A DNA stretch of 64,000 nucleotides from Bacillales bacterium (GTDB taxonomy: Bacteria > Bacillota_I > Bacilli_A > RF39 > UBA660): positions 49,751-113,750 of the forward strand of contig JAEEKZ010000046.1 in the NCBI GenBank assembly GCA_016288635.1. Direction: 5' to 3'. How positions within the stretch are numbered: the first letter of the stretch is position 1; every line of letters begins with the position of its first letter. The translations under genes were made by a program, and so were the position numbers. Below the pieces are notes generated by a model. That model was not told where the DNA came from. It made no database searches and was given only the letters and a program-made list of their open reading frames with translations. Positions 725 to 33,594 of the stretch are shown here, piece after piece.

Positions 725-2584
725 TTACTTAGATAAATACTCACAAATAATATTGCTTATTTCTGTTGGATTATCAATTGATAATCCTTCAATTAATCTA
801 GCTTGAGCATATAACACTTTTGTATACTTCTCTAAACCTTCTTTATCATTTTCATATAAGTCTTTTAATTTGCTTGCTATTTCATGTGATTCATTAATCT
901 CTAAAACCTTTGTAGCTTTAATAGAATCAGCATTAGGCATAAGCTTCATAGCCTTTTCCATTTCAATAGAAACGGCACCTTTTGTCGTTAATACTACTGG
1001 GTGATTCTTTAGGTTATTTGTAAATTTAATTTCACTTACTTCCGGAATTGCCTTTAACATTTCATCAAACAAGCCTTTAGCTTCTTCATTATTCTTCTTT
1101 AATTCTTCTTTTTCTTCTTCTGGCTCAACATCTTCAGTAGCAATGTTTGCAAATTCCATCTTTTCATATTCTCTTAATGTTAATAAAGCAAATTCATCAA
1201 TATACTCTGTACAATATAGTATTTCATATTTTTCTTTTAAAGATTCAACCTTTGGCATCTTATCAATCATTTCAATTGAATCGCCGCATGCATAATATAT
1301 TTTTGTTTGTCCATCTTTTTTTCTATCAACGTATTCTTTTAATGAAACTTGTTTTAAATCGTTAGATGAATTAAATAATATCAAATCTTTAATCTTGTCT
1401 TTATTTAAACCATATTCATTATAGATTCCAAACTTTAGTTGTAAAGCAAAGTCTTTATAGAACATTTCATACTTTTCTCTATCTTCTTTAAGAATTCTTT
1501 CTAATTCTTTGATAATCTTGTTCTCGATAGAATTAGCAATTGTTTTTAATACTCTATTTTGTTGTAAAGTTTCTCTTGAAATATTAAGTGACAAATCAGG
1601 AGAATCAACAACACCCTTAACAAAGCTTAAGTAATCAGGAAGTAAATCAGCACATTTTTCCATGATTAGTACACCATTTGAATATAGTTGTAATCCTTTT
1701 TCATAATCTTTTGAATAATAATTAAATGGTGCATGTGATGGAATATATAATAATGAATTATATTCAATCGTTCCCTCAGCAGAAGTATGAATATGACTTA
1801 TTGGTGATTCATAATCAAAGAATTTATCCTTATAGAATGTATCATATTCTTCATCTGTAATTTCATTTTTTCTTCTCTTCCAAAGTGGAACTAGTGAATT
1901 TAAAGTCTTAACTTCTCTTTCTTCTTTTTTCTCTTTAGATTCTTTATCCTCAACTTCTCTAACTTCTTCCATCTTAATTGGATAAGTAATGTAATCGCTA
2001 TATTTCTTAATTAAGCGTTCTATAGTGTTATATTCTAAATATTGATCATAGTCTTCATCATCATTTTCTTTAATAGTTAATTCTATTGTAGTTCCATAAT
2101 CATCTCTTTCAGCCTTTTTAATTGTATAACCTTCAATACCTTTACTTAACCATTCGTTAGCTTCATCAGATCCATATGCTTTAGATACAACTCTAACTTG
2201 ACTAGCAACCATAAATGCAGAATAAAAACCTACACCAAATTGGCCAATTATATCAATATCCTCTTTTTTCTCATTATTATTTTTAAAGTCTTGAGATCCA
2301 CTTTTAGCAATTGTTCCTAAGTTAGACTCCAATTCTTCTTTAGTCATACCTATTCCATTATCGGTAATGGATAATAATCTTTTATCTTTATCAATAGAAA
2401 TATTAATTTCTAACTTATCTTTATCAATCTTTATCTTCTTATCAGTTAACGATTTATAATGCAATTTATCAATTGCATCAGATGCATTAGATATTATCTC
2501 TCTTAAAAATATTTCCTTATTTGTATATATCGAATTTATCATCAAATCCATTAATTTCTTCGATTCTGTTTTAAATTCTTTCAT
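725..2584 (-). CDS. htpG: Molecular chaperone HtpG (Hsp90 family)
   Basis: Carries the Hsp90 N-terminal ATPase signature (IFLREIISNASDAIDKL) and is about 620 aa. I place the start at the ATG at 2584 (MKEFKTESKKLMDLMINSIYTNKE), which follows the RBS GGAGAGAGG. The ORF-track TTG extension to 2647 is probably not real. Confidence 0.9.
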   Translation of the reverse strand: MKEFKTESKKLMDLMINSIYTNKEIFLREIISNASDAIDKLHYKSLTDKKIKIDKDKLEINISIDKDKRLLSITDNGIGMTKEELESNLGTIAKSGSQDFKNNNEKKEDIDIIGQFGVGFYSAFMVASQVRVVSKAYGSDEANEWLSKGIEGYTIKKAERDDYGTTIELTIKENDDEDYDQYLEYNTIERLIKKYSDYITYPIKMEEVREVEDKESKEKKEEREVKTLNSLVPLWKRRKNEITDEEYDTFYKDKFFDYESPISHIHTSAEGTIEYNSLLYIPSHAPFNYYSKDYEKGLQLYSNGVLIMEKCADLLPDYLSFVKGVVDSPDLSLNISRETLQQNRVLKTIANSIENKIIKELERILKEDREKYEMFYKDFALQLKFGIYNEYGLNKDKIKDLILFNSSNDLKQVSLKEYVDRKKDGQTKIYYACGDSIEMIDKMPKVESLKEKYEILYCTEYIDEFALLTLREYEKMEFANIATEDVEPEEEKEELKKNNEEAKGLFDEMLKAIPEVSEIKFTNNLKNHPVVLTTKGAVSIEMEKAMKLMPNADSIKATKVLEINESHEIASKLKDLYENDKEGLEKYTKVLYAQARLIEGLSIDNPTEISNIICEYLSK

Positions 2585-2633
2585 ATTTCCTCTCTCCTTG
2601 TACTTGTGTACTAGAATTAATGTAGCACTATTT

Positions 2634-2660
2634 TTAGCACTTGTCAATCATAAGTGCTAA
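2634..2660. promoter_or_regulatory. CIRCE-like inverted repeat (HrcA operator) upstream of htpG
   Basis: TTAGCACTT-GTCAATCAT-AAGTGCTAA fits the CIRCE consensus TTAGCACTC-N9-GAGTGCTAA, with one change per arm. It lies about 50 nt upstream of the htpG start. Confidence 0.6.
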
Positions 2661-2671: not shown

Positions 2672-2705
2672 AATAAAAAAAGTGCTATTTCTAGCACTTA
2701 TTTTA
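2672..2705 (-). terminator. Rho-independent terminator downstream of the fused giant ORF; appears bidirectional
   Basis: Hairpin AAGTGCTA-tttc-TAGCACTT with an A-run on one side and a T-run on the other. It sits immediately after the stop codon at 2703. Confidence 0.5.
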
Positions 2706-5700
2706 TTTCCAAGATGGTCCACCAAATTCTTTTTGTGAACCTATTTTTTCAACATCTATTTCATAACTAGCAACATTAATAAATGTATGCCAGTAATTGT
2801 TTTGTGAATTATTTACTTGTGTAGAAGCATGCTCTCTTTGTTCTTTATCTGAACTATTAATACGAGATGTACTAATATAATCAAAATCAGACTCAAACTT
2901 ATCAATAAATTCACTATAACAGAATATGTTTTCAAATGTTCTATCTTGAATCTTGTAGTCATAGCATTTTAATGAATTATCACTAAATCCACCTTTGCTA
3001 TTTTGATCTCTATTATAATCTCTAATCTTAGAAGCAAGACTTGGAGTCATAACAACTTTTAACACTTTTTGATAAGATCCAATTTCTTCAATCTCAGAAG
3101 TTATATAATCTTCTTTATCCATATAAATTAATTCACCATATTCAGATATTTCCCTAATCGTAGCTTTTGCTTTCTTAGCAATTATTTCATATTCTGAATT
3201 AACATTCCAGTTATATGGAGCCGATGTTTTATCACACCCTAAGATATTGCATTCTTGTTCAGGTGAACCTAAATCGCCTGAATTATTAGCTGTAGCTGTC
3301 TTATCAGGTGGAATTACCGTAATTGGTTTAAAGTTAAATTGTAAATCTCCATCATCGTAAATACATCCAATACAGCATTCCTCGCATTCTACTGTACAAA
3401 CTGGACAATGTGGAGTTATTGTACATAATTCTTCAGACTCACATGAAACATCACACATAGGACAATTAATAATGTATTGACATACATATTCACCATTAAA
3501 TAATACTTTATCAGAATTATTTAACAATTTATTAACCACTGTATTAGCATTTTCAACGGTATTATTAATAATTCTTCCTTTATCATGTTCATCAATTTCT
3601 GTTAAATATTTGTTATCGTACAATTCTCCAATTTTATCGACTTTATATTTAAAATCAAAAATACCGGTTGGAACTTTTATTTGAATTGGTAAGCCTTCAA
3701 TGATTGTTGAGTTTGTCGTCTCTTCATCTGTTACTACGCCAGATGGGAATGTGTTATAAACTACATTCTTAGTTGCATATTTATACGTATCAACATATTT
3801 TATTGAACGGTATCTTGTATTATATACTGTATACTTCTGACCGGATTCTTTTAAATTAGATCCGTCCCATTCATATTTATGAATCGCTGAACTTAAACTT
3901 ACAGGATTACTTCCACACTCTTCATAAGAATTATCTTTCAAACTTCCCGTACATCCCTCAACTGGGTATGATTTTTCTTCGGTTACGCTCGAAACATTAA
4001 AGACATTTCTATCTCCTTTATTAAAGAATCTTTCAAAATAAATATCTGCATATTCAAACTTGATTGTTAAAGGATCTAATCCTTTAACATCCCAACCATT
4101 ACATTCATTAATTTCAGAAACTTCTAAATCAATATTTGAAATCAATTTTCCAATTTGTTCTTCAGCATCTTTATATTTTTGTTCATAATCACTTCTGCTT
4201 TCATTAAATTTATCTTCAGCAGTTTTACTAATTGAATTTGAACCAGTACATTGATTAATTTGTTTATCGTATGTTGCTAGAATATAAGAATCCTCAAATG
4301 ATAATGAAGATGTTCTTTCTTCTCTATTAACTACTATTTGATAATCAACATAATTTCCTTGTTTAGTTCCCTCAACTAATTTATAAACATTATATTTTAT
4401 TCCACTCTTTTCACCAGGAACTCTTATTTCCGTAATATTTAATTCTCCCGCGCAAGAAGAAATTTTTCTATTACTTGTAGAAGAATTAACCAGTGCTTCA
4501 AAATAAGCTTTATTCTCAGCATAAACATTTAATTGTTTTACTAATTTTTTATAATATCTACCTACAATTTCATTAAATCCTTCAATATTTACGCCATCAG
4601 GTTCTGTTCTATTAGTATTATCGTTATATGTTCCCCTTCCTAAGTAGCATGTCTTTGTACCTTTTGAATCAGCTTTTAAAGTAATATATCTACCACTAAA
4701 TGTTTCTTGTCTTCCAGAGAATTTTAAATAATCATAATCTTCTTTACAATAAACTGCACAATACTTATTACCAGTTTTAGGAATAGTCATTGAATCAGGT
4801 TCATGATCTCCAGCCAACTTATAAGTATTTCCCGCAATATCTTTATTATTTAAAACACATTTAACAATATTATCATTTGCTACTTCTTTAAAGTCAAAGA
4901 CGTTTATCATATTGTCTTCGTCAGGTTCAAGATTAACACACGATTTAGATCCATTTATTTCTGGACCACAACACTTTTTACTAAACTCTTCAAATGTTAC
5001 AGGTTTACCATCATCTCCACGATAATCATCGCCCGGTAAAACAACACATGAACATTCTTCTTTAAATCCAGGATCAGATGAAGATGTGTAATGACTAAAA
5101 TTCCCATCAGATCCCATTGATCCATAGAACACCCCATTATTGGCTTCTGTACAAGAACAAGAATTAATATATTCTGATTTTAATTTAGTACGTGTTCCAT
5201 CAGCTAAATAGTAATATCCAGATTCAGCATCATATTCACAATAATGCTTTGTAGGATTATCACAATAATCAATATATTCTTCCTCTGTTACTCTAATTCC
5301 ATCATAATAGTAATCAGTATCATTTTCTATACAACATCCAGTTTGATATATACAACTACTAGGATTACATAATTGCTTATATTCTTCCATAGATACTGGT
5401 TTTCCATCATAGTAAGTAACATCACCATCTATACAGCATCCAGGCTCTGTTGTACAATCATTTTCTCCGGAATCACATACTTTTTTCCATTGTTCATAAT
5501 TACTTTCATCAGAACCTAAATCAATTAAATTCCCATCATTATCATAATATAAATGAGGAGTCACTTCAGTAACAATTCTACAACCACATAAATCCTTAAA
5601 TTTTTGAATTATTTCTTCTAAACTTGAGCCTGTTATTTTGTTATAATCCCAATCGTAATAATTACCCTCTTCATCTATTTGGCATCTATATTTTGGGCAA

Positions 5701-7373
5701 TCTATATTTGGATTATTTGTTACTTTTTTAATCTCTAAATCGCTTGATTCATCATAAAAAATATATTTTTGAGTACTTGCAGCTGTTGATGCTTTTGTAC
5801 TTAGATAACTAATTGTTTTATTATTTTTCTTATACTCATAAGAAATTGTATATTTTGTTTTAGAATTACTACATGATTCCCCAATATATTTTAATCTTAT
5901 ATATGCTTCATTACTTGTGCACTTTAATTTCTTAATATCTGTTTTAGACTTATTAAATGATTTATTACAAGAATAATCAACAATATAATTATCATTATCT
6001 ACTGCAATTTTTGTAATTCTTTTATAATTATTTATTTTATGAATTACTATTCTTTTATCAACTTCTCCGGCTTCAATAGATATTTCGCTTTCATCTATTT
6101 GTTCAGTTGCATATTTTCCTGCTTTATATATCTTACATGCATCAATATCAAATGCTTCGCGACAATCTTCACTGGCGGCATCATATGCAGTTTTAACACC
6201 ATTAAATGCTCCTGTAGAAAGTGTTCTTATTGCTTGAGCAAGAGAAACATATTGATCATTTGATAAATTATTTAGATTATATCCTAACGTTGATTCTGCA
6301 TATGAAAACATTTCTATAATGCTATTATTATATGTAGCATAAAATTCTGATGTACGAGAATCATTTGCGGGATCCGCTACTTTATAAACTTGTTTTACTG
6401 AATGCAATCCTGGATTAATACAAACAGCAAAACGAGTTTTTCCTTCACCAGTAGCATCATATTTTAATATATTTCTTAATCTTTTTTCACCAGTATATCC
6501 CCCTAAGTGATATGAAGAATATGTAGTATGCATAACAGTACCATATATTGTGTATTGTTGTTCTTCAGCATGAGCAGTAAATGGTAATAATACTAATATT
6601 AATAATAACAAAAATAGTTTTTTCTTTTTATGTCCTTTTTTAGACGGCTTTCTGCTTTGATAAATAGCAATAACTATTCCTAAAGCAATAATTGCTCCAC
6701 CTACAAAATATAATCCTAGCTTTATTGAGGAAGCAACTTTCTCTTGAAAATCTTTCTCCTCTTTTTTTGTTTCCTCTTTCTTTTCTCCATTTAAATAACT
6801 AGTTAATTCTTTTTGAAAAGTTTTATATGATATTTCACTCATCGTTGTAAATGTTTGACAAAAACTAAATTCAGGATGATCGATACATGCCTCATTATAA
6901 GAATAATGATTAAATCTAGGCAAAACCAATTTAAGTAATTTGATAGTTTCGCCATAACATGATGTGTTATTAGATGCCTTTACTGCAATATTTAAATTAC
7001 GAATATAATCAACATCATTAACTCCATATTCTTTTACATATTTTCCGTTTGTACTAGTACTATAATCAGCATAAACTACTTCAGGACTTATATCATCAGT
7101 TATTTCAGCATATAAATTCTCGGTTAAATTTAAAATATTTAATTTTAAACCATAACCAGTAATTAAACCTGTTTCATCTTCAAACTCTTGAATAACACCA
7201 TCAATGTTGTCATCAGTTTCAATTTCAACCACTTCGTATTTTGCTTCAACTAAATTTGCTTCTCTATTTAATTTTGCTTTTTCTTCATAATTGCAATTTG
7301 CTGCCTTAACAGGAAATATTATTATTAAAAGAAAACTTATCAACAATAAAAAACAACCTTTTTTAAGATTCAT
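2703..7373 (-). CDS. Module 1, in-frame fusion of a small membrane-anchored protein and a giant Cys-rich secreted protein. Paralogous to the gene pairs 58238-59023/53815-58245 and 63072-63872/59125-63075
   Basis: The layout reads: signal peptide, about 210-aa domain, TM helix (GLYFVGGAIIALGIVIAIY), basic tail KKGHKKKK, a second signal-peptide-like hydrophobic segment (LFLLLLILVLLPFTAHA), then a 1300-aa Cys-rich region. Both parts align with the separate small and large proteins of the other two modules. Confidence 0.6.
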   Translation of the reverse strand: MNLKKGCFLLLISFLLIIIFPVKAANCNYEEKAKLNREANLVEAKYEVVEIETDDNIDGVIQEFEDETGLITGYGLKLNILNLTENLYAEITDDISPEVVYADYSTSTNGKYVKEYGVNDVDYIRNLNIAVKASNNTSCYGETIKLLKLVLPRFNHYSYNEACIDHPEFSFCQTFTTMSEISYKTFQKELTSYLNGEKKEETKKEEKDFQEKVASSIKLGLYFVGGAIIALGIVIAIYQSRKPSKKGHKKKKLFLLLLILVLLPFTAHAEEQQYTIYGTVMHTTYSSYHLGGYTGEKRLRNILKYDATGEGKTRFAVCINPGLHSVKQVYKVADPANDSRTSEFYATYNNSIIEMFSYAESTLGYNLNNLSNDQYVSLAQAIRTLSTGAFNGVKTAYDAASEDCREAFDIDACKIYKAGKYATEQIDESEISIEAGEVDKRIVIHKINNYKRITKIAVDNDNYIVDYSCNKSFNKSKTDIKKLKCTSNEAYIRLKYIGESCSNSKTKYTISYEYKKNNKTISYLSTKASTAASTQKYIFYDESSDLEIKKVTNNPNIDCPKYRCQIDEEGNYYDWDYNKITGSSLEEIIQKFKDLCGCRIVTEVTPHLYYDNDGNLIDLGSDESNYEQWKKVCDSGENDCTTEPGCCIDGDVTYYDGKPVSMEEYKQLCNPSSCIYQTGCCIENDTDYYYDGIRVTEEEYIDYCDNPTKHYCEYDAESGYYYLADGTRTKLKSEYINSCSCTEANNGVFYGSMGSDGNFSHYTSSSDPGFKEECSCVVLPGDDYRGDDGKPVTFEEFSKKCCGPEINGSKSCVNLEPDEDNMINVFDFKEVANDNIVKCVLNNKDIAGNTYKLAGDHEPDSMTIPKTGNKYCAVYCKEDYDYLKFSGRQETFSGRYITLKADSKGTKTCYLGRGTYNDNTNRTEPDGVNIEGFNEIVGRYYKKLVKQLNVYAENKAYFEALVNSSTSNRKISSCAGELNITEIRVPGEKSGIKYNVYKLVEGTKQGNYVDYQIVVNREERTSSLSFEDSYILATYDKQINQCTGSNSISKTAEDKFNESRSDYEQKYKDAEEQIGKLISNIDLEVSEINECNGWDVKGLDPLTIKFEYADIYFERFFNKGDRNVFNVSSVTEEKSYPVEGCTGSLKDNSYEECGSNPVSLSSAIHKYEWDGSNLKESGQKYTVYNTRYRSIKYVDTYKYATKNVVYNTFPSGVVTDEETTNSTIIEGLPIQIKVPTGIFDFKYKVDKIGELYDNKYLTEIDEHDKGRIINNTVENANTVVNKLLNNSDKVLFNGEYVCQYIINCPMCDVSCESEELCTITPHCPVCTVECEECCIGCIYDDGDLQFNFKPITVIPPDKTATANNSGDLGSPEQECNILGCDKTSAPYNWNVNSEYEIIAKKAKATIREISEYGELIYMDKEDYITSEIEEIGSYQKVLKVVMTPSLASKIRDYNRDQNSKGGFSDNSLKCYDYKIQDRTFENIFCYSEFIDKFESDFDYISTSRINSSDKEQREHASTQVNNSQNNYWHTFINVASYEIDVEKIGSQKEFGGPSWK

Positions 7374-7429
7374 ATCATATCACCCTACTATTTTTAGTTT
7401 ACCATAATTGCCCATATAACACAAACAAA

Positions 7430-7462
7430 ATAACTAAAAAAACAGCTTATTCTTAAGCTGTT
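7430..7462 (-). terminator. Rho-independent terminator at the end of divIB/ftsQ
   Basis: Hairpin AACAGCTTA-ttc-TTAAGCTGTT followed by a T-run on the minus strand. It overlaps the stop codon. Confidence 0.5.
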
Positions 7463-8177
7463 ATTTTCCTTTTTCATAAATATAATTTGAACTATTACTA
7501 TCCAAATACAAAGTACCATTATTACCAATTTTTTCATATATTTTTAAATATTCATTCAATTTTCTAATATTTGGCGTATTTATATAAACATCATTTCCAT
7601 CATTCATTCTTAACAAAAAACGATATTCATCATAAACGACTTCATTCTTTATATCAGGATTATATTCTATTTCACTAATAGATCTAATTATTTCATCATC
7701 AATTTTATTTAACCCTTTTATTAATTCTTTATAGACTCCATCTTCAGTAACATAATTAATTAATGTTGGAAGCCCAATATATTTATTTGAATTTTTAACT
7801 TCTTTACTATTTGCTAAGACAACGTTACCCGTTATCATATTAACAAATAAAGGTTTACTCTCTTTAACAGAAATAGTTACTTTGCCACTTAAACTAAGTT
7901 TAATATTTGCTTCTTCAACATAACCAGTCTTAATTAAATTATCTTTAATTTTTAGTATATCAACACTTATTATTTTAGAATAATTACTTATTCCCGATAA
8001 ATCAATTATTTCATTATCAGTTAAATACTTGGCATTTTCAACAACAATATTTTTTACACGCATATTTAATATCCCTTTAATAGCAAAAAACAATACTACT
8101 AAAAGGATTATTAGAAATAAAATGCCTTTATAATTTATTCTAAGTTTCCTCTTCACTTTCTTCTTTTCTTTTTCCAT
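7461..8177 (-). CDS. ftsQ: Cell division protein DivIB/FtsQ
   Basis: Short basic N-terminus, one TM helix, then a POTRA-like extracellular domain. It follows murG-murB, the conserved dcw-cluster position. Confidence 0.7.
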   Translation of the reverse strand: MEKEKKKVKRKLRINYKGILFLIILLVVLFFAIKGILNMRVKNIVVENAKYLTDNEIIDLSGISNYSKIISVDILKIKDNLIKTGYVEEANIKLSLSGKVTISVKESKPLFVNMITGNVVLANSKEVKNSNKYIGLPTLINYVTEDGVYKELIKGLNKIDDEIIRSISEIEYNPDIKNEVVYDEYRFLLRMNDGNDVYINTPNIRKLNEYLKIYEKIGNNGTLYLDSNSSNYIYEKGK

Positions 8178-8178
8178 T

Positions 8179-9060
8179 TTAATTCCATCTAACTATCTTT
8201 TGCTCTAATTCTAATTCGATTTTATAATTATCATATACTTCTTTTTGAATATATTTAATCAATTCTTTTATATCTTTAGATGTAGCATTTCCACCATTAA
8301 CAATAAAGTTTGCATGAACTTCACTAACCATTGCACCACCAATACTATAGCCCTTTAAACCTAAAGAATCTATTAACCTGCCAGCTGCATCTCCCTCTGG
8401 ATTTTTAAAAACAGATCCTGCATTTGGCATACTAAGTGGCTGTGATTTCATTCTTTTTAATGCTTGCTCTTTAATTAATTCTCTTGCTTCATCAACATCG
8501 CCTTTTTCAACTTTAAACTTTGCGCCTAAAACAATACATTTATTTAAATTAGAACGTCTATAACCATATTCAATTTCATCTTTTTTTAATTTAATTAAAT
8601 CACCATTTTTATCAATTACTGTAACACTAACTAAATACTCAAATATTTCATGATTATATGCTCCTGCATTTCCTACAAGAGCTCCACCAAGAGTTCCCGG
8701 AATAGAATTAGCCCAGTAAAAATTTACATATTCATTTTTTAATAAAGTCTCATTTAAAACTCCAAGCGTTACTCCTGCTTCAACTTCGATTTCATCTTTA
8801 TCTTTATTAATTTCAATATTATTAAGTAAATCAAATACTATAATATTACCATTATAATCTTCATCAGGAAGAATTACATTTGATCCATTGCCCAAAATAT
8901 AATAACTCTCATCTGCTTTTTTTATTTCATCTAAAACTTTTTTTACATCTTTAAGAGAATAAGGATGAATAATTCTTTTAGCATATCCACCAATTTTATA
9001 TGTATTATATTTTTTTAAATCTGCATTTTCTTCAACTTCCGCAATTTTATCTAGTTTCAT
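8179..9060 (-). CDS. murB: UDP-N-acetylenolpyruvoylglucosamine reductase MurB
   Basis: FAD-binding N-terminus (KYNTYKIGG...LGNGSNVI), about 290 aa, and adjacent to murG. Confidence 0.9.
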   Translation of the reverse strand: MKLDKIAEVEENADLKKYNTYKIGGYAKRIIHPYSLKDVKKVLDEIKKADESYYILGNGSNVILPDEDYNGNIIVFDLLNNIEINKDKDEIEVEAGVTLGVLNETLLKNEYVNFYWANSIPGTLGGALVGNAGAYNHEIFEYLVSVTVIDKNGDLIKLKKDEIEYGYRRSNLNKCIVLGAKFKVEKGDVDEARELIKEQALKRMKSQPLSMPNAGSVFKNPEGDAAGRLIDSLGLKGYSIGGAMVSEVHANFIVNGGNATSKDIKELIKYIQKEVYDNYKIELELEQKIVRWN

Positions 9061-10130
9061 AATATCTCCTTAATTGATTTATAGATTATATCTCCAGATG
9101 ATTCTTTACTAATTTTATCAAGATTTTTCTTCAAATCTTTTATTTTATTTTGCATTACATCTCTATATTCAATCAATAATTTTTCAGGATTCAATTCTTT
9201 TTCTTCCATTAAAACAGAAACTTTCATATTACTTAAATCTAATGCATTGTAATATTGATGATTATTGGCAACATTTGGACTTGGTATCATTATACTTGGC
9301 ACCTTAAGAGCTAATATTTCGCTTATTGTAGAAGCCCCAGCACGAGATATTATTAAATCAACATCTTTCATTAATCCAGCCATATTATCAATATATGGAA
9401 CTATATGAACATTCTTTGGAAATTCTGCTCCTTCAATAAAATCATCATAATGCGATTTACCTGTTACAAATATAAATTCATATGGGTCATCTCCCACTAA
9501 AGATAAAAACACTTTCATTATTTCGTTAAGACTACCACTACCTAAAGATCCAGCAACAACTAAAATTGTTTTAGAATCCTTTTTAACACCAAAATTCGTC
9601 TTAGATATTTTAGGAATAGTTAAAGCATTACTTCCGCATGGATTACCAGTGTATACTACTTTTTTAGCATTTCTAAAATATTGCTTACTATTACTAAATG
9701 ATACGCCAATTAAATCAATACCTTTAGATATAAATCTATTTGCTTTACCAGGAATACTATTTTGCTCATGTATAAAAGTTTTAACTCCTAACTTCTTTGC
9801 CGCCCACATAACTGGATATGTAACATATCCACCTACTCCCACAACAATATCGGGTTTAAACTCTTTAATAACTTCTAAGCATTTCTTTTTTGCTTTATTT
9901 ATCAAAAAAATATTCTTAACATTTCTTATCATGTTGGTTTTACTTAAACCATATATCTCAATTGGGACATACTTAATACCTGCCTCAGGAACAATATCCT
10001 TCTCCATTCTATTATGTGTTCCAATATAAATAACTTCAAAGTCTTTTTCTTTCTCTTGAAATTTTTTTATGATGGCTAAAGCCGGATAAATATGACCTCC
10101 GGTTCCCCCTGCTGAAATAATCATTCTCAT
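9057..10130 (-). CDS. murG: Undecaprenyldiphospho-muramoylpentapeptide beta-N-acetylglucosaminyltransferase MurG
   Basis: N-terminal glycine motif ISAGGTGGHIYPALAI. The ATG at 10130 (MRMIIS...) follows the RBS GAGGGTGA. The ORF-track TTG at 10145 is probably too far upstream. Confidence 0.9.
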   Translation of the reverse strand: MRMIISAGGTGGHIYPALAIIKKFQEKEKDFEVIYIGTHNRMEKDIVPEAGIKYVPIEIYGLSKTNMIRNVKNIFLINKAKKKCLEVIKEFKPDIVVGVGGYVTYPVMWAAKKLGVKTFIHEQNSIPGKANRFISKGIDLIGVSFSNSKQYFRNAKKVVYTGNPCGSNALTIPKISKTNFGVKKDSKTILVVAGSLGSGSLNEIMKVFLSLVGDDPYEFIFVTGKSHYDDFIEGAEFPKNVHIVPYIDNMAGLMKDVDLIISRAGASTISEILALKVPSIMIPSPNVANNHQYYNALDLSNMKVSVLMEEKELNPEKLLIEYRDVMQNKIKDLKKNLDKISKESSGDIIYKSIKEIL

Positions 10131-10701: not shown

Positions 10702-11073
10702 TTATGATTTAACTTTTGCTTCAATCTTATTATTTTTCTTTGTGATAATTATTTTTAAATTATTTAATTTTTTATTAATATCTCTGGGATCTTCCAAATC
10801 ACCATTTTCGTTTGCAGCCAAATAGCCACTTTTTATTAAATCTTTTACATAAATAGTTACTGATCTTTTTCCCTCTGCAAAAATTGTTTCTTCGTTATCA
10901 TTAGCATATTGCTTTGCAACTGCTTCTATTATAAGTATTTTATTATTATATGAATCATTTTGATTGTTGCTTGGAATTGAATGAGAAACATAAATCATAC
11001 CAATTAAATAAACAACCGTAAATGCTACAATAACAATAAGCATTTCTAAAATAGTGCTTCCTTTTTTGTTCAT
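10702..11073 (-). CDS. Type IV pilin or pseudopilin-like protein with a class III (prepilin) signal
   Basis: The N-terminus MNKKG/STILEMLIVIVAFTV matches the G/xTLxE prepilin cleavage motif, with Glu at +5 and a hydrophobic helix. Confidence 0.7.
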   Translation of the reverse strand: MNKKGSTILEMLIVIVAFTVVYLIGMIYVSHSIPSNNQNDSYNNKILIIEAVAKQYANDNEETIFAEGKRSVTIYVKDLIKSGYLAANENGDLEDPRDINKKLNNLKIIITKKNNKIEAKVKS

Positions 11074-11082
11074 AACACTCCC

Positions 11083-12006
11083 CTACTTCCAAGATATCTC
11101 AGCCTTGGCCACCTCAAATATTTTCTTTATAAGATTATTATATAACTTATCATTATTAAATTCAAATTTTTCTTTTAAGTTAATTTCCAAGAATCTCATG
11201 GCATTTTCCTCATTCATCTTATAATAATCTATCGTAGGAGATAGTATCTCATTCTTAAATGTATTTAATGCATTATCAGTAAACCTGTACTTACTCTTAA
11301 TATATCTTATTAAACTATTATATTTGGTATTAAATTTAAAATCTCTTTTACCATAAGAATATATTAATCTTTCTTTATATATTTTATTATTTTCTTTTAA
11401 TAATGCACTTGCTTCTTTACTATTCTTTATTGTTCTCTTATATATAATATTATCTGTTAATTTAACTTCATTATACAAAACAATAAATCTTTCAATTAAT
11501 TCCATATAATTCTTTAAAGGTTTTGATAACGATGTATTGTATATTCTTGTAAATTCATCCATGGTTAATGCACCATAAATATTCATTATTCCAGACACAT
11601 AAGCATATTCTTTATCTATAATTTTGCTCTTTTTTAATAAAAGTTTACTTTTTAAATGATGAATCATATTATTTCTAACATCATCATAAAAATAATATTT
11701 TTCTCCTTCTTTATAAATAAATTCATACTTAATTAATTGATTTAATACAAATAATCTATGATACGTAAGATCCTTTTTATTTATACCTCTTTTTAATTTT
11801 AATAATTTATTTAATTCCTTAAGATCATTATATTTTAAACACTTTATAAACTTAAGCGTTATATTATCTAGTTCACTTATAAAATCTGATGCCTTTTTAC
11901 CAAAATCAACAGGTTTATCTATATACAAAACTTTATATTTGTCCGTAAATTTAGTTAATTTATCTTTTTTTAAGGTTAAAACATAATTGCTAATTAACTT
12001 TTCCAT
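11083..12006 (-). CDS. Hypothetical Lys-rich cytoplasmic protein
   Basis: 307-aa ORF with no recognisable motifs. Confidence 0.4.
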   Translation of the reverse strand: MEKLISNYVLTLKKDKLTKFTDKYKVLYIDKPVDFGKKASDFISELDNITLKFIKCLKYNDLKELNKLLKLKRGINKKDLTYHRLFVLNQLIKYEFIYKEGEKYYFYDDVRNNMIHHLKSKLLLKKSKIIDKEYAYVSGIMNIYGALTMDEFTRIYNTSLSKPLKNYMELIERFIVLYNEVKLTDNIIYKRTIKNSKEASALLKENNKIYKERLIYSYGKRDFKFNTKYNSLIRYIKSKYRFTDNALNTFKNEILSPTIDYYKMNEENAMRFLEINLKEKFEFNNDKLYNNLIKKIFEVAKAEISWK

Positions 12007-27027: not shown

Positions 27028-27732
27028 TTATCTATTTTGAGTAACTATTAATTTAACATTAACAACTATACATTCTTGAGTAGGATGGGCTTGTTGGAAA
27101 CTATATGCTAGATTACCCCAATAAGTATCTGTAGCATCATCACCCGACTCAAAAGGCCATGTAATTTCCATGGAGTATGAACCCGTTTCCCCAACACCCA
27201 AATTAGTTCTATCAGTTAAAAATGTTATTGAAAACGGATAATTTGATTCTAAAAAGTCTTCTAATTCATCACTCGTCATATCATCTTCATTTGGAGTTTG
27301 TCCTCGGTCTAATCTTCCATCAACAGAAACATATTCTGTACCAAGTATATTTGCACTCATAATTTTATATTCCATAGAAGCTGCCATTTCTCCGTCATTT
27401 ATGATATTAATAGAGTCATAGGCATCAGCCATTCCCGGATATACTTCATCTATATCAAACTGTACATATTGAACATTTTGATTATCATCAGTTTTGAAAT
27501 TAATCTGCCAAGATCTAACATGTACATTGATATCGTTGGATACTTCACTGGCATAAATAAACCACGCTAAAGTATTAGCAGTTATCAATACAACTACCAA
27601 TAATAACTGCCATATTTTAACTTTTTTAAATAAGATTTTAAGAATAAACTTAAATTTATTTATTTTAGGCTTATTATTCCTTTTCTTCTCCTCCATTTGA
27701 ATCATCCTCATCGTCTTCTTCATCTTCTTCAT
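27028..27732 (-). CDS. TasA/camelysin-like secreted protein with a SipW-cognate type signal; last gene of the operon
   Basis: Basic N-region, hydrophobic core, then TLAWFIYAS, which fits [TS]-x-A-[YWF]-F. The ORF-track start overlaps the upstream SipW gene by 59 nt, so the true start is probably an internal Met. Confidence 0.5.
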   Translation of the reverse strand: MKKMKKTMRMIQMEEKKRNNKPKINKFKFILKILFKKVKIWQLLLVVVLITANTLAWFIYASEVSNDINVHVRSWQINFKTDDNQNVQYVQFDIDEVYPGMADAYDSINIINDGEMAASMEYKIMSANILGTEYVSVDGRLDRGQTPNEDDMTSDELEDFLESNYPFSITFLTDRTNLGVGETGSYSMEITWPFESGDDATDTYWGNLAYSFQQAHPTQECIVVNVKLIVTQNR

Positions 27733-28303
27733 CTATTTCACTAAACTTTTCAGCTACTATTTGAAGAGATAAAGATACACCAATTATTAACACTATAATA
27801 AAGTATGTAACTATATTATTTGTTAACTTACTTATAAAACTAAGTAAAACTGATTTATATATTACTTTTCCATATATTTGTGATTGAGTTATTTCCTCAT
27901 CTTCAATTGCATTAGCAACACCCTTTGTAATAAAGTGATATTGCTTATCTTCTTCATCAAATTTTTTATCAATTACACGGTGAGTTATTGTAAATCCTTC
28001 ATACTGAATTTTCTCAGTATCAAATGTAACATCATCACCAATTTTTATATCTTTACCTTCAGTCTTTTTAATAAATATAATATCGCCAACTTTATATACC
28101 GGTTCCATTGATCCAGTAGCAACATTATAAATCCTAATACCAAACACAGATATATTCTTACTGCTAGGTATTTTTTGAACTAAAATAATAACTAATAAAC
28201 AAAGTAATATAAAGAATGCAATTCCTTTTCCAATTCCTATAATTAATTTGATTATCTTATTATTATCTATTGCTTCCTTTAATTTAATTATTTTTTTAAT
28301 CAT
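27674..28303 (-). CDS. sipW: Signal peptidase I of the SipW (ER/archaeal) type
   Basis: N-terminal TM helix. Catalytic Ser motif ATGSMEP and His motif ITHRVI. It also has a C-terminal TM helix and an acidic tail. Confidence 0.8.
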   Translation of the reverse strand: MIKKIIKLKEAIDNNKIIKLIIGIGKGIAFFILLCLLVIILVQKIPSSKNISVFGIRIYNVATGSMEPVYKVGDIIFIKKTEGKDIKIGDDVTFDTEKIQYEGFTITHRVIDKKFDEEDKQYHFITKGVANAIEDEEITQSQIYGKVIYKSVLLSFISKLTNNIVTYFIIVLIIGVSLSLQIVAEKFSEIDEEDEEDDEDDSNGGEEKE

Positions 28304-29435
28304 TTTGCCCTCTTAATTTGAAATTAATAATTTTACTAATTGCACTTTGAATCTTACTATTTAACTTAGTTTGAACTTCCTCAATAGAAGCTTCTTTTTT
28401 ATTCTTAATAATAGCAATCTTATCACCAATCTTTTGAGTAATCTCTTCAACTGGCAATTCAGAATTTATTTCAACAATTTTATTAATCATACCATTAGTC
28501 AAGTTTTCAACTTGATCTCTAGTTAATTCTAATTGTTCTATCTTATTTGAAGTTAAACTATCCATAACTAAATAGTTAAGTAAGAATAATTCATCAAATT
28601 TACCCTTAGCTTCAATATCATCTTTATATTCTTTATTCGTTTTATTTTTTGTACTACCATCCTCAAGATTATTCTGCAAAAAATCCCATAACTTCATTGC
28701 ATATTGGAAGTTAGTATTTTTTAAAATTAAGTTTGTCTTCTTAATCGGTGGAATAACTCTAGATACGTGAGCTCTCATTAATGTTTTATAAACAGTTGTA
28801 TTAGTTAAGTCAGTAATTCTCATCTCTAACTTTTCTATTCTCTCTGGAATAGTTAAACCACTATTGTTCTTGCCTTTCCATTCTTTAGATACATTGGCAG
28901 ACGCATCCATAGTGACATTAATAGAAACATTTTCTGTTCCCATTTTAGCTTGTCCACAATACATACTTTGTCTATGATTCTTAGAAAATGATTTAGTAAC
29001 CAATTTTGACTTTTTAAAATCTATAAAAGTTCTCATATTTTGAATTAGAGTATATATTACTCTATTTTCATATGTATCATAACTTTCATCTTTATTAATA
29101 TTTAATATTTTAGATGGTTTAACATCTCCATTTGCTTCGATTTCTTGAATAAAACTTGTGTGTTTTGCCAAATGTTTAATACTTTCAACAGTAATTCTTC
29201 TTGCTTGTTCAACTTTAACTATTTCTTCTTCGTTTATGATAAATCTATTTGGATTTCTTAAAATATTATCAAGATATCTTACTGTATCTTCCATTAATTC
29301 TAACCACTCAAAAGAAACATCAAGACTCTCAATGTTTTCTTTTATATTATAAGAAGATTTTATTGAACTTTCGAAGGATACAACTGATTTTTTATCAGCA
29401 TGTTCATATGTATCAAATACTCTTAAACTACTCAT
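28296..29435 (-). CDS. Hypothetical partner of the McrB-family GTPase (McrC-like position); no nuclease motif seen
   Basis: 379 aa and translationally coupled: it starts 9 nt after the McrB-like gene and ends inside sipW. Contains a DTYENRVIYTLIQNM segment. I could not find a clear PD-(D/E)xK motif. Confidence 0.35.
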   Translation of the reverse strand: MSSLRVFDTYEHADKKSVVSFESSIKSSYNIKENIESLDVSFEWLELMEDTVRYLDNILRNPNRFIINEEEIVKVEQARRITVESIKHLAKHTSFIQEIEANGDVKPSKILNINKDESYDTYENRVIYTLIQNMRTFIDFKKSKLVTKSFSKNHRQSMYCGQAKMGTENVSINVTMDASANVSKEWKGKNNSGLTIPERIEKLEMRITDLTNTTVYKTLMRAHVSRVIPPIKKTNLILKNTNFQYAMKLWDFLQNNLEDGSTKNKTNKEYKDDIEAKGKFDELFLLNYLVMDSLTSNKIEQLELTRDQVENLTNGMINKIVEINSELPVEEITQKIGDKIAIIKNKKEASIEEVQTKLNSKIQSAISKIINFKLRGQND

Positions 29436-29443
29436 ATTAACAC

Positions 29444-30973
29444 CTATGACATCTTCTTAAGCCTTAATACATATTCAATACATTCAGCCATTTTATCTTT
29501 ACCAAATGTTTTATCTAAATATTCTACGAAACCATCAATTTCATCACGAATATATGAAATATTTAACTGTTCAAATTTTCTTAAAATCTTACGAGCAATG
29601 AAATAATCTACTCCAGCAATTTCATCTCCACCACAGGCAACAAATACTGGAACAAACTTTTTCATATGTGCCATAATACGGTTACCAAAAGCTATACGGA
29701 AATGTTTAATAACATAGTCATCCATTTCCTCAATCTTTTTAAGTGTTTCATCTGAAATAGGATTATCATCTATTGCATCAGTAAATAACTTATCTAAGTA
29801 ACTGAAATTAATATCTTGAGCTTGAACATTCTCTGCATCAAACACTTGACCTTTTGTATTAATATCTATTGGCATAGCACGGTCGTAAACCTTATCTGTA
29901 ACCATAAATGTTGAGTCATCGTTATTGATTGTTCCTATATACCAACAATTTGGTGGAATCTTTAATTTACCACTTATTAAATGTTTAGGGTCACTTGCCC
30001 ATGCTGAAGAAACAACTTCAACAATCCATTCATCTTTATTAGGCATTTCTAGAATTGATAACATCTCGGCAAAATAATATTCGACACGAGAGATGTTCAT
30101 TTCATCTAGGATGATTGTATAAACATCATCTGTATATCCTGCTTCATATAATGTTTTTAAAATATCAGTCTCATTAAACTTCTTAGTAAATTCGTTGAAG
30201 TATCCAAATAACTCTGATCTATCACGCCATGATGGCTGAACAGATGCAACACATGAGTCATGCTTTAAGAATTTTCCCCAAGCATATGCTAGGGAAGTTT
30301 TACCTGTTCCAGAAATACCTTGTAAAATTACAATCTTAGTACTTGCTAAACCAGATATAAATATACGAATCATATCAGATGTATAATATAAACCTAACTG
30401 ACTAGCTGCAAAATTTCTAAATAATTCAATTAACTCTGGTAAAGTAAATGAATTGTTATAATTTTGAATCTTATAATCTTTATATTGTATATCAACATCA
30501 TGTAATTTAGAGAATCTAATTGCAGTATTTTGATCAATTTCTTCCCCTTCACCATTTTCATCAGGGTTAACAATATTATCCTCACCTGGTTGTAAACCTA
30601 GTTGGGAAACTTTCATTGCAAGAATTGATTCTCTTTCTTTCATTAAAGATGAAACTTTAGAATTTAATGTAGAAATTTCCTCTAACATTGATTCTTGTTC
30701 CACAATTGTCTTCCTAAATCTAATATATTTTCTAATTAAATAAACGATTAATAAAACTATACCAGCAATAAAAGCTAATAGAATTAATAAACCTATGCCA
30801 AATAATACCCATTCACCTGGCGAAAGATCTGCTTTATAACGGGCTATTATCTTAATATATTGAGGGACATTTAAAGTTTGAACTACACCTTTAAAAATGC
30901 CTATAACGCCTAATTTTAAACCACCAAAAAACTGTGATAATACTTCATAAAACAATTTTAAAAATGTCTTCAA
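29444..30973 (-). CDS. Membrane-anchored McrB-family AAA+ GTPase
   Basis: Walker A (ILQGISGTGKTSL), McrB-type Walker B (TIILDEMNISRVEYYFAEMLSILE), the McrB signature IGTINNDDS...DRAMPI, and an N-terminal TM helix plus coiled coil where a DNA-binding domain would normally sit. Confidence 0.6.
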   Translation of the reverse strand: MKTFLKLFYEVLSQFFGGLKLGVIGIFKGVVQTLNVPQYIKIIARYKADLSPGEWVLFGIGLLILLAFIAGIVLLIVYLIRKYIRFRKTIVEQESMLEEISTLNSKVSSLMKERESILAMKVSQLGLQPGEDNIVNPDENGEGEEIDQNTAIRFSKLHDVDIQYKDYKIQNYNNSFTLPELIELFRNFAASQLGLYYTSDMIRIFISGLASTKIVILQGISGTGKTSLAYAWGKFLKHDSCVASVQPSWRDRSELFGYFNEFTKKFNETDILKTLYEAGYTDDVYTIILDEMNISRVEYYFAEMLSILEMPNKDEWIVEVVSSAWASDPKHLISGKLKIPPNCWYIGTINNDDSTFMVTDKVYDRAMPIDINTKGQVFDAENVQAQDINFSYLDKLFTDAIDDNPISDETLKKIEEMDDYVIKHFRIAFGNRIMAHMKKFVPVFVACGGDEIAGVDYFIARKILRKFEQLNISYIRDEIDGFVEYLDKTFGKDKMAECIEYVLRLKKMS

Positions 30974-30995
30974 TCTCTCTCACCCTTTTCTCTTA

Positions 30996-31979: not shown

Positions 31980-31998
31980 TTTCTCCCTCTATTCTTTT

Positions 31999-32922: not shown

Positions 32923-32947
32923 ATTAACTCCTTTCTATAATATTTTA

Positions 32948-33577
32948 TTAACCCTCATATTCTCCTTTAACAAAAGTAATATCAGTATCTATTTCATTAC
33001 TAGCATTTTTATTTATATTTACTGCTGAATCACTAACTATTATTTCTATTTCCCAGGTATGGACCGTTTCTTTTCCTTTATCTGCACTAATTTCGTAATT
33101 ATTTGCAAATTTAAATACACCTGTTTTATTAGTAATATCAAACACATTATTTTCTACATTAAAATTCAAACCGTTAATTGAATTTACATAGGTTCCATCA
33201 GGCTTCTTAATTTTCAAATTTATTGCTTCCGAATTATCCTCAGAGCGAACGATGTTATTATTTTTAATATTTATATAACCATTATAAGTAGTAGAACCAT
33301 TATTTTTTGAATCGGCAGTATAAACCACTACAGGTCTTGTAATAGCCCTATGAGTATTATCTTCTGTCTCTATTAATTGATTAATAGTTTCTCCTTTTAA
33401 GAAAAGTAAAGTTTCTCCTTTGGCGGAACTTGCTGACATACTTCCCACAGAAGCTTCATTAACATTTGAAGAAAGATATGAATATGTTATTGTAATAGTA
33501 ATCATAAACAATAAAACGAAAGACAAAGTACATATTGCTATAGTTTCTTTTCTAATTTTCTTTCTTACATTATCCAT
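32948..33577 (-). CDS. Secreted protein with a SipW-cognate-like signal; TasA-like fibre candidate
   Basis: Signal ...ITITYSYLSS, followed by a 170-aa beta-rich mature region. Confidence 0.4.
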   Translation of the reverse strand: MDNVRKKIRKETIAICTLSFVLLFMITITITYSYLSSNVNEASVGSMSASSAKGETLLFLKGETINQLIETEDNTHRAITRPVVVYTADSKNNGSTTYNGYINIKNNNIVRSEDNSEAINLKIKKPDGTYVNSINGLNFNVENNVFDITNKTGVFKFANNYEISADKGKETVHTWEIEIIVSDSAVNINKNASNEIDTDITFVKGEYEG

Positions 33578-33594
33578 ATTCTTCTCCTTTCTTT

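Follow-up and report, generated by a model that had tools for sequence, protein, structure and literature searches.

The stretch of DNA analysed here (the window, 64,000 nucleotides) raises the question of whether a single open reading frame between divIB and htpG is a genuine union of two proteins that are otherwise encoded separately and, if so, what would be made from it. The 1556-aa frame is present as the earlier note had described it, with a Shine-Dalgarno-like GGGTGA 7 nt 5' of its ATG (Table 1), and its designation as a third paralogue of a two-gene module holds for both halves. Residues 1-251 align to the small proteins of modules 2 and 3 with 29 and 27% identity (E 2e-19 and 8e-13), respectively, and the remainder aligns to the giant proteins of these modules, with 34% identity over the C-terminal 400 aa (E 3e-50). 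The small-gene stop was said to overlap the large-gene start in modules 2 and 3; the two are indeed adjacent, but they overlap only with GTG as start, and ATG starts with a Shine-Dalgarno-like motif, 1 nt and 5 nt past the small-gene stops, are more probable for both large genes.

Table 1. Coordinates of the features in the window.
Feature	Position	Strand	Details
Promoter-like site for htpG	2647..2619		beyond the fused gene's terminator-like hairpin
Terminator-like hairpin	2680..2699	-	immediately 3' of fused gene
Fused small+large ORF	2703..7373	-	1556 aa; ATG start; stop included
Conserved C-terminal body of large family	2706..4898	-	aa 826-1556; ends GGPSWK
Cys-rich repeat region, presumed stalk	4899..5693	-	aa 561-825
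TED fold, class II-like	5694..6566	-	aa 270-560
Candidate thioester Gln535	5769-5771	-
Candidate thioester Cys318	6420-6422	-
Internal signal-peptide-like segment LFLLLLILVLLPFTAHA	6567..6617	-	aa 253-269; predicted SPase I site AHA/EE
Basic cytoplasmic loop QSRKPSKKGHKKKK, fusion junction	6618..6659	-	aa 239-252
Small-partner TM anchor	6660..6719	-	aa 219-238; hydropathy
Small-partner ectodomain	6729..7301	-	aa 25-215; 4 family-invariant Cys (C27, C139, C163, C172)
Signal peptide 1	7302..7373	-	aa 1-24; predicted cleavage VKA/AN; hydropathy and sequence inspection
Terminator-like hairpin	7441..7462	-	3' of divIB, 5' of fused gene
Tad-like operon	44940..53685	-	3' of modules 2 and 3
Two small pilin-like genes	47343..47606, 47082..47324		in Tad-like operon
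T2SSE ATPase	49431..50816		in Tad-like operon
Large partner, module 2 (large2)	53815..58245	-	1476 aa from GTG; probable ATG 58236
Small partner, module 2	58238..59023	-	261 aa
Large partner, module 3 (large3)	59125..63075	-	1316 aa from GTG; probable ATG 63063
Tandem repeat, 93 bp x 4.5	62118..62538		inside large gene of module 3
Small partner, module 3	63072..63872	-	266 aa

The fused gene is monocistronic and lies between terminators. Of the promoter and terminator of its own that it had been credited with, the two flanking hairpins were found, but no convincing promoter occurs in the gap 7374..7440. Base composition is the same as in the surroundings. The gene order murG-murB-divIB-fusion-htpG-rplS is the same in a relative (L001) with 85% identity in DivIB and 77% in the fused orthologue. 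Neither ftsA nor ftsZ was found across the whole 64-kb window and sepF/divIVA are located upstream of murG; the cluster was therefore already rearranged. The earlier note's suggestion of an insertion into the dcw region, at a place normally taken by ftsA/ftsZ, gains no support from these data, and a search for an outgroup locus yielded none.

The in-frame fusion of small and large partner is genuine, evolutionarily conserved and under purifying selection, which bears out the claim of a natural and stable fusion. Both orthologues, P0001 (90% identity) and P0002 (77%), are full-length fusions, and independent assemblies L092 and L093 of the same strain show no difference at the junction. The 4.7-kb frame is intact in three lineages at dS up to ~0.8, and its dN/dS is ~0.2 (0.17 overall, 0.24 for aa 216-269, 0.11-0.24 across all segments), with 0.08, 0.05, and 0.18 for divIB, htpG, and murB, respectively. 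That the A-tracts at ~6615-6650 hide an assembly error or a phase-variable frameshift, with two genes as the true state, is effectively refuted and has a negligible probability: the junction does hold A6, A5, and A6 runs, but it recurs in the other assemblies, the orthologues differ there in sequence and yet remain in frame with only 3-nt indels (two against L001), no other frame offers a start or stop arrangement, and runs of at most six A are ordinary in a genome of 28% GC. It is also highly improbable that the gene is an orphan relic: a module copy that moved away from the pilus operon after duplication, had its stop removed by chance and is now decaying or functionless. Its distance of 46 kb from the Tad-like operon, its monocistronic setting and its somewhat faster evolution than divIB and htpG would fit such a relic, but the frame has outlasted the divergence of three lineages, each segment evolves at a dN/dS like that of murB, and the thioester Cys and Gln are kept together with the Cys framework.

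Hydropathy of the fused frame revealed exactly three hydrophobic segments at ~aa 7-22, aa 219-238, and aa 253-266, the last two being separated by the loop QSRKPSKKGHKKKK with its eight basic residues. The segment that follows the loop looks like a cleavable signal peptide, with a 13-residue h-region, Pro at -6 and A-x-A, V-x-A, and V-x-A at -3/-1 in the three fused orthologues; the corresponding sites in the unfused paralogues are VFA/E and VDA/L. The gene therefore most likely encodes a polyprotein that signal peptidase would cut into anchor and adhesin, and the two-TM hairpin is probably just its precursor state. The topology that had been proposed (out, TM, cytoplasmic loop, TM, out) fits the hydropathy, but as a final state it sits poorly with these marks of cleavability. 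Were it the end state, the internal segment would be an uncleaved TM helix and the giant would be tethered N-terminally to the small partner via a two-helix hairpin. Such a permanent fusion has a self-consistent topology with a strongly basic loop, the dN/dS of the hairpin region (0.24) points to purifying selection, and a lasting tether would stand in for the anchor that the large protein lacks. It is nevertheless doubtful, as the segment matches the signal peptides of the unfused paralogues and the TED head begins only a few residues past it. Without cleavage the head would be pinned to the membrane under the wall, whereas in described TED adhesins the TED forms the distal, N-terminal end (PMC6194298, PMC8092201).

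With some reserve, we favour the view that the gene encodes both components of a surface adhesin module as one polyprotein-type precursor. Signal peptide 1 would direct export of the ~190-aa small-partner ectodomain, the TM helix would halt transfer, the loop would remain cytoplasmic, and the next hydrophobic segment would act as an internal signal peptide that restarts Sec translocation before signal peptidase I cleaves between aa 269 and 270. The predicted products, a membrane-anchored small subunit and a ~1290-aa secreted protein without an anchor of its own, would equal those of the unfused paralogues, in which two translationally coupled genes encode them. At its N terminus, the secreted protein would carry a class II-like thioester domain, putatively an adhesin head that acts as a covalent 'harpoon'. 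A stalk of Cys-rich repeats would come next and the conserved C-terminal body of ~730 aa last; this body is the likely cell-proximal docking part and may bind the small subunit or minor pilins of a Tad-like filament. Fusion would be possible because the end of the small partner and the signal-peptide start of the large partner are both predicted inside the cell, so that loss of stop and start would be topologically free. It would also set a 1:1 ratio for the copy 46 kb from the operon.

In the AF2 model of aa 253-560 (pLDDT 76.6), the N-terminal tip of the giant part folds like a covalent thioester (TED) adhesin of a class II-like type. Cys318 and Gln535 are the candidate residues for the thioester bond; among 81 aligned family members, Cys occurs in 80 and Gln in 79, in the contexts [YF]C[LIRM][DN]P and Q[RK][FY]. 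By the published motif definitions (PMC4450167, PMC6194298), the fused copy deviates in having V before Cys, not Y/F/L, and LAQAIR as central-helix motif, not TQxxΦW. With family TED-region HMMs, the fused copy scores 56 and 26 bits, and the operon-linked paralogues large2 and large3 give no match at all. Pfam TED scores over gathering in family member P0004 (residues 66-163) and matches no copy in the window.

The large family comprises at least 343 representative clusters and has no Pfam model. Among 171 proteins retrieved, 165 of which were large-family members of at least 850 aa, a small-partner domain or internal TM occurs in P0001 and P0002 only, and on this search only the orthologous group of the present gene is fused; the small-partner profile gave nine matches, all of 253-296 aa. 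LPXTG occurs in none of the 165 members, and with no TM in the family either, the large protein by these signatures has no anchor of its own. A C-terminal GP[SA]W[KR] is present in 151/165. The C-terminal body, not the adhesive head, is the most conserved part of the family, and in the fused protein it carries the Cys cluster CPMCDVSCESEELCTITPHCPVCTVECEECCIGC. Since its model is moderate (pLDDT 65.8) and no fold relative was found in PDB, its docking role is a guess.

Downstream of modules 2 and 3, the Tad-like genes run in the order DUF5411, three RcpC/CpaB-like genes, the T2SSE ATPase, two polytopic membrane proteins, the two small pilin-like and two minor-pilin-like genes, and a 337-aa protein. 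The order small-large-DUF5411-RcpC-T2SSE-... is found in the window and in L082/L083, L084, L094, and L095. Small and large genes are the first two of the operon in 4/4 distant loci examined and abut or overlap by 1-4 nt in all of them, an invariable pairing which agrees with the earlier note that the two proteins act together. By gene order, an uncharacterised Tad-like pilus operon of uncultured gut Bacillota thus begins with the unfused pair. The ATPase, described as CpaF/VirB11-like, scores under every NCBIfam cut-off and RcpC matches under gathering; the label 'Tad-like' is based on these two and on gene order. The platform proteins and pilins gave no HMM matches, and no prepilin peptidase was seen.

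It is possible, though on the unlikely side, that the giant TED protein is a stand-alone adhesin kept at the surface by nothing but the small subunit. The Tad-like machine would then be uninvolved for the fused copy, and the linkage of the other copies to the operon would reflect co-regulation only. In favour of this, the fused copy is bounded as a transcription unit of its own with no pilus genes close by, the large partner is always accompanied by the small one, a predicted type I membrane protein, and a sortase-independent TED adhesin with unknown attachment is known on pLS20 (PMC8092201). Against this, the pair opens the operon in every distant locus examined, and conservation that peaks in the C-terminal body fits docking to conserved machinery. 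The two-component precursor, possibly pilus-associated in its fused copy too, remains our preferred reading. New here are the operon linkage, the size of the large family, its lack of a Pfam model, LPXTG and anchor, and the limitation of the fusion to one orthologous group.

The closest systems are the class II TIEs BaTIE (6FWV), SaTIE (6FX6), and EfmTIE86 (6FWY) and the class I TEDs CpTIE (5A0G), SfbI (5A0L), and Cpa (2XI9). As in both classes, a Sec signal peptide leads directly into an N-terminal TED fold with a repetitive stalk behind it, and the conserved Cys and Gln lie in [YFL]CΦζ-like and ΦQζΦΦ-like motifs, respectively. A feature shared with class II is a beta-rich insert that separates the helices from the Gln strand. 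Unlike either class, the present family carries no LPXTG or sortase signal (0/165), has a stalk of Cys-rich repeats instead of isopeptide or ester domains, ends in the ~730-aa body without a detected fold relative, and is always paired with a small TM protein. Its central-helix motif is T[SN]IAΦR and not TQxxΦW, and its Cys-Gln spacing is 217-340 aa compared with 130-204 in solved TEDs.

TIEpLS20 (p34), encoded on the conjugative plasmid pLS20 of Bacillus subtilis, is a class II TED adhesin that is displayed independently of sortase and attached to the cell by unknown means (PMC8092201). Like the present family, it is a TED adhesin without sorting signal encoded with a cell-envelope-spanning apparatus, a conjugative T4SS there and a Tad-like operon here. 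It has CnaB stalk domains, and no small TM partner has been described for it. Cpa/Spy0125, the TED tip adhesin of Streptococcus pyogenes, belongs to a covalent sortase pilus, whereas the genes associated here are of the type IV filament kind. PilY1/PilC-type proteins are large tip-associated proteins of type IV pili and, like the large family, big Sec-exported non-pilins encoded beside minor pilins, in which the N-terminal adhesive module varies and the C-terminal one is conserved; the likeness is architectural only, as no similarity in sequence or fold was found.

Miller et al. 2022 (PMC9523054) predicted a 'secretion-related' DUF5411/CpaF operon for Clostridia. It shares with the present one DUF5411, a CpaF-type ATPase, a PilC/GspF-like membrane protein, an adjacent putative adhesion protein and its occurrence in Gram-positive gut bacteria, but its description mentions an internalin-like 'cell invasion' protein and no TED giant with small TM partner (PMC9523054). 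For both operons, the function is a prediction. Polyproteins cut by signal peptidase at an internal signal peptide include the Bradyrhizobium FbcH cytochrome b/c1 and those of flaviviruses. These, like the fused gene, combine TM, cytoplasmic loop and internal signal peptide with AxA site in a single ORF; their processing gives two membrane or exported products, as is predicted here for partners that are instead adhesin components.

The earlier note had described an uninterrupted 1556-aa ORF on the minus strand between divIB and htpG, and this ORF was borne out, with an ATG start and a GGGTGA Shine-Dalgarno-like motif ahead of it. By BLASTP, its first 251 residues matched the separate small proteins of modules 2 and 3 with 29% (E 2e-19) and 27% identity (E 8e-13), respectively, and the alignment with the module 2 protein spans the signal peptide through the TM helix. 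The remainder aligns with the giant proteins of both modules (34% identity over the last 400 residues, E 3e-50), which are 41% identical to each other. In the unfused copies the small-gene stop had been said to overlap the large-gene start; the genes do abut, but they overlap only with the listed GTG starts, and ATG codons with better Shine-Dalgarno spacing sit 1 nt and 5 nt past the small stops. As a crude neighbor-joining tree of the C-terminal body clustered the three window copies together, the fused gene is taken to be an old lineage-specific paralogue. Two orthologues, P0001 (90% identity) and P0002 (77%), were retrieved by a protein search with the whole ORF. Pfam and NCBIfam assigned no family to any of the three large and small copies, save for a marginal DUF2963 repeat match in large3, and a search of the region ahead of the fused gene with Rfam gave neither a riboswitch nor any other RNA. 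The large3 gene also carries a 93-bp tandem repeat (4.5 copies, 93% match) encoding near-identical 31-aa CEKVGNTYYGPNGEVLNSEAEFNQKC modules, where the marginal Pfam match lies. Other assemblies of the same gene (L085-L088) differ or break at this repeat, which suggests copy-number variation or assembly collapse.

Features of the window and hydrophobic segments of the fused ORF (aa, residues of the fused ORF)
Feature	Position	Strand	Basis or description
htpG	725..2647	(-)	
Fused ORF	2703..7373	(-)	1556 aa
Signal peptide of fused ORF	~aa 7-22		hydropathy scan
Small-partner TM anchor	aa 219-238		hydropathy scan
QSRKPSKKGHKKKK	loop between TM anchor and LFLLLLILVLLPF		hydropathy scan
Third hydrophobic segment, LFLLLLILVLLPF	aa 253-266		hydropathy scan
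Prepilin-like gene	10702..11073	(-)	123 aa
Unannotated gene	11083..12006	(-)	307 aa
Cluster of about ten ORFs	27028..35540	(-)	mostly without Pfam match
DUF2357 protein	28296..29435		within the cluster of about ten ORFs
S24/S26 signal-peptidase-like protein	34204..34938		within the cluster of about ten ORFs
Tad-like operon	44940..53685	(-)	same strand, downstream of both unfused pairs
DUF5411 protein			operon gene; E 5e-51
Three tandem paralogous RcpC/CpaB-like proteins			operon genes; weak matches
T2SSE-family ATPase			operon gene; Pfam E 1e-27; C-terminal P/Q-rich tail
Two polytopic (platform-like) membrane proteins			operon genes; 308 and 263 aa, downstream of ATPase
Two Cys-containing pilin-like proteins			operon genes; 80-87 aa; MKEATGEL/MKEATEEL leaders, then hydrophobic helix, no Flp EY
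Two minor-pilin-like proteins and a 337-aa protein			operon genes; EzrA next
Module 2, large protein (large2)	53815..58245	(-)	
Module 2, small protein	58238..59023	(-)	
Module 3, large protein (large3)	59125..63075	(-)	
Tandem repeat in large3	62118..62538	(-)	
Module 3, small protein	63072..63872	(-)	

A 19-residue hydropathy scan of the fused ORF found only three hydrophobic segments. In topology the small partner is of type I: behind its signal peptide follow an ectodomain, in which four Cys are invariant, then a charged linker, the TM helix, and finally a basic tail on the cytoplasmic side of the membrane. The large partner is a Sec substrate that lacks an anchor. The small partner is predicted to end in the cytoplasm, where the signal peptide of the large partner would start; because both ends would be cytoplasmic, removal of the stop and start would join the partners without topological conflict, and the merged basic tail and n-region would form a cytoplasmic loop. 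The internal segment has a short h-region, Pro at -6, A/V at -3, and A at -1 in all three orthologues, and its -3/-1 pattern agrees with VFA|E and VDA|L of the unfused paralogues. Since it has retained all the hallmarks of a signal peptide that can be cleaved, cleavage by signal peptidase at AHA|EE is, with moderate confidence, judged the most likely outcome. The fused copy thereby predicts a processing event whose products would be the same two proteins as those of the unfused modules, in an obligatory 1:1 ratio. Without cleavage, this internal segment would stay in the membrane in a hairpin as the tether of the giant protein. Such a hairpin would fix the N-terminal adhesive head to the membrane, whereas thioester domain (TED) adhesins are arranged oppositely (PMC6194298, PMC8092201). 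The fusion resembles polyproteins that are processed at internal signal peptides; a search for literature on bacterial polyproteins of this kind found nothing useful.

The fusion itself was examined by comparison with relatives. The earlier note had asked whether the fused copy is ever split into two genes, and both P0001 and P0002 are fused along their whole length. On the 142-kb contig of P0002 the order murG-murB-divIB-fusion-htpG-rplS is identical to that of the window, and the junction DNA differs from the window's by substitutions and two indels, each of exactly 3 nt. Two further assemblies, essentially of the same strain, have an identical junction (99.98 and 100% identity over 11 kb). 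Between the window and the P0002 contig, dN/dS (Nei-Gojobori) was 0.17 for the whole fused gene and 0.24 for aa 216-269, with dS of ~0.8; murB had a comparable ratio of 0.18, and divIB and htpG had lower ones of 0.08 and 0.05, respectively. An assembly error in the A-tract, phase variation, or a decaying pseudogene is effectively excluded by the conserved in-frame junctions, the further assemblies with an identical junction, and dN/dS, and the fusion is stable as first proposed.

The fusion is restricted to one orthologous group, comprising the window copy, P0001, and P0002. Among 171 retrieved proteins, only these two orthologues matched a small-partner HMM, and among family members only they have the internal TM-like segment. 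A database search with the small-partner profile retrieved nine proteins, all of 253-296 aa. Small and large proteins are separate in modules 2 and 3 of the window and in the distant loci L082, L084, L094, and L095. The pair thus forms a Rosetta-stone case, with partners that are separate elsewhere, fused in one lineage, and kept so by selection (dN/dS 0.17). The fused copy serves as a natural experiment indicating which two proteins belong together and as a single construct for expressing both at a fixed ratio, and the 1556-aa ORF should not be “corrected” to two genes in annotation. The fused gene is probably a neat yet near-neutral event, and the family with its operon context is the more valuable lead.

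An insertion into the dcw region had also been suggested. The divIB gene encodes POTRA_1 and FtsQ_DivIB_C domains, and there are two terminator-like hairpins, one after divIB and one after the fused gene, the latter followed by a promoter-like site for htpG. Among the window ORFs scanned, neither ftsA nor ftsZ was found, and sepF and divIVA are located on the upstream side of murG. GC content is uniform across the window, and the gene arrangement is the same in a relative with 85% DivIB identity. Any such insertion would be older than the divergence from the 77% relative. A scan of species-representative genomes with HtpG found the closest protein (65%) in an “uncultured Bacilli” MAG, in an unrelated context, and a metagenome scan with MurB found one relative at 81%, on a contig that breaks off 758 bp past murB. 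Apart from the 65% MAG, the closest HtpG proteins in species-representative genomes are from Clostridia (~57%). The context of the locus is not conserved, and htpG, next to the fused gene, may itself be mobile or laterally acquired.

The head of the large protein has, in the structural model, the three-dimensional fold of a TED, a fold defined by a beta-barrel plus a three-helix bundle, to which class II TEDs add a beta-sandwich insert. Of 81 family members, 80 have the thioester Cys, as [YF]C[LIRM][DN]P, and 79 the thioester Gln, as Q[RK][FY][YVI]; these match the [YFL]CΦζ and ΦQζΦΦ motifs described by Walden et al. 2015 and Miller et al. 2018 (PMC4450167, PMC6194298). In the fused copy, FAVCINPG (Cys318) lies at the end of model strand 60-66, with V in place of Y/F/L, and STQKYIF (Gln535) adjoins model strand 285-290. 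The central-helix motif TQxxΦW is absent, with T[SN]IA[LIV]R in the family and LAQAIR in the fused copy; this motif is reported to be conserved but not essential, with its Gln and Trp dispensable (PMC4450167, PMC6194298). Cys and Gln are 217 aa apart in the fused copy and ~300 in most relatives; in this long spacing, and in the beta-rich stretch that separates the helices from the Gln strand, the modelled head resembles class II TEDs. None of the three window copies matched Pfam TED (PF08341) at its gathering threshold. The family member P0004 does pass (23.5 bits vs 22) over residues 66-163, the Cys-to-helix region, and 2 of 31 family members matched at E <0.01. Family HMMs of the Cys and Gln regions scored 56 and 26 bits on the fused copy. 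The modelled fold and the two residues that define the domain make the head a TED, with a putative Cys-Gln bond. A “dead” TED, in which T[SN]IAΦR would replace the thioester Gln, was considered and dropped, because the family conserves the actual Gln motif at a later point in the sequence and T[SN]IAΦR is, by the motif definitions, the non-essential central helix.

The family HMMs of the Cys and Gln regions did not match large2 or large3. In each, the N-terminal domain is short (~170 aa) and retains A[VW]C and AIR motifs; it may be a TED in compact or degenerate form, or a head of another kind. The hand-picked Gln candidates RQPMY and AQNMY in large2 and large3, respectively, gained no support from the family HMMs.

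A profile of the C-terminal body retrieved 343 representative clusters (50% identity) at E <=1e-3, mostly of 900-1400 aa. Of 165 long members, 151 end in GP[SA]W[KR]; none has LPXTG in its last 60 aa, and none has a C-terminal hydrophobic segment. The median Cys content is 3.3%. Because LPXTG is missing, the large protein is not a TIE or sortase-anchored adhesin. Pfam found no Cna or isopeptide stalk domains. A PDB sequence search gave 0 matches with the large-family profile and only chance matches (E >0.6) with the small-family profile. A combined alignment of small part, junction, and large N-domain, intended for folding the first 560 aa of the fused protein, was rejected, as MAFFT placed large proteins on the small part. 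From N- to C-terminus the protein consists of head, presumed stalk, and conserved body. Taken with the link to the operon, this orientation suggests that the body may dock to the small subunit, to the minor pilins of a Tad-like filament, or to both.

The operon in question lies complete in the window, downstream of both unfused pairs. Two of its three RcpC/CpaB-like paralogues match PF16976 under the gathering threshold (E 1e-4 and 5e-3), with faint or weak matches in L082 and L094. The NCBIfam models nearest to the ATPase, VirB11, the TadA family, and TrbB, give scores well short of their cut-offs. The two polytopic proteins have no Pfam or NCBIfam match as TadB/TadC (T2SSF) platform proteins and are placed by position and size, and the pilin-like proteins lack the EY of Flp-type prepilins (G/XXXXEY) and any HMM match. 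No TadV prepilin peptidase was seen among the window ORFs scanned. The same gene order occurs in the distant loci L082/L083, L084, L094, and L095, whose large proteins are 22-31% identical to those of the window; there, the stop of the small gene (244-246 aa) abuts or overlaps the large start by 1-4 nt, followed by DUF5411, RcpC-like, and T2SSE genes. On this shared order, the small and large pair is a conserved opening of a Tad-like operon. The DUF5411/CpaF operon of gut Clostridia has been reported as an uncharacterised secretion-related system (Miller et al. 2022, PMC9523054). This machinery now gains a candidate cargo or adhesin, a TED-headed giant protein with its small membrane partner.

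Further genes were noted around these loci. In L095 (8002..9525), DUF5411 is fused to Peptidase_M15, a VanY-like peptidoglycan peptidase, a hint at a role for DUF5411 at the cell wall where the apparatus passes through it. A divergent gene for an Rce1-like (CPBP) intramembrane protease lies upstream of the small gene in all four of L082 (region 6383..7731), L083 (region 7108..8456), L084 (region 7725..9145), and L094 (region 3890..5935). Beside it is a metallophosphoesterase gene in L082, L083, and L094 and a 265-aa gene without Pfam match in L084; in L094 a thioredoxin-like/PedC-like gene is present as well. These neighbours are possible maturation or disulfide-handling factors for the Cys-rich proteins. 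The window's species lacks this neighbourhood ahead of module 3, and lepA and hemW-like genes are found there instead (L085). In one relative, a VirD4/TraG-type coupling protein and an M23 peptidase (L082 1584..3641/L083 2309..4366) occur a few kb upstream of the small-large-Tad-like operon; some copies of the system may be carried on, or beside, conjugative elements. Within the window, the 123-aa protein has a type IV prepilin leader (MNKKG|STILEM) and a weak ComGC match. Its gene and the adjacent unannotated gene lie between rpoZ and a metallo-beta-lactamase-fold gene, and the protein is conserved on the P0002 contig and apparently unrelated to the Tad-like operon.

The family comprises at least 343 representative clusters without a Pfam model and combines a TED giant with an obligatory small membrane partner linked to a Tad-like operon. 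To our knowledge, the only thioester adhesins described are wall proteins anchored by sortase, tip proteins of sortase pili, and one adhesin of plasmid conjugation, and there has been very little characterisation of the Tad and type IV filaments made by Gram-positive bacteria of the gut. Our search found no paper tying thioester domains to Tad or type IV pili. We tentatively raise the possibility, itself rather doubtful, that the pair is an undescribed way to display a covalent (thioester) adhesin in monoderms, in which a sortase-independent giant TED protein is handed from a dedicated membrane partner to a Tad-like machine. The machine would carry the giant protein across the wall, at the filament tip or with the filament as a piston as in type II secretion, and the conserved ~730-aa, Cys-rich, fold-orphan C-terminal body would be the docking module. 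If this is true, the natural fusion would be direct genetic evidence of a 1:1 anchor-adhesin complex. Three known systems come closest in function: Cpa, with its TED at the tip of a sortase pilus; TIEpLS20, a TED adhesin that is likewise sortase-independent and is encoded with a conjugation apparatus; and PilY1-type tip proteins of type IV pili, which are alike in architecture only.
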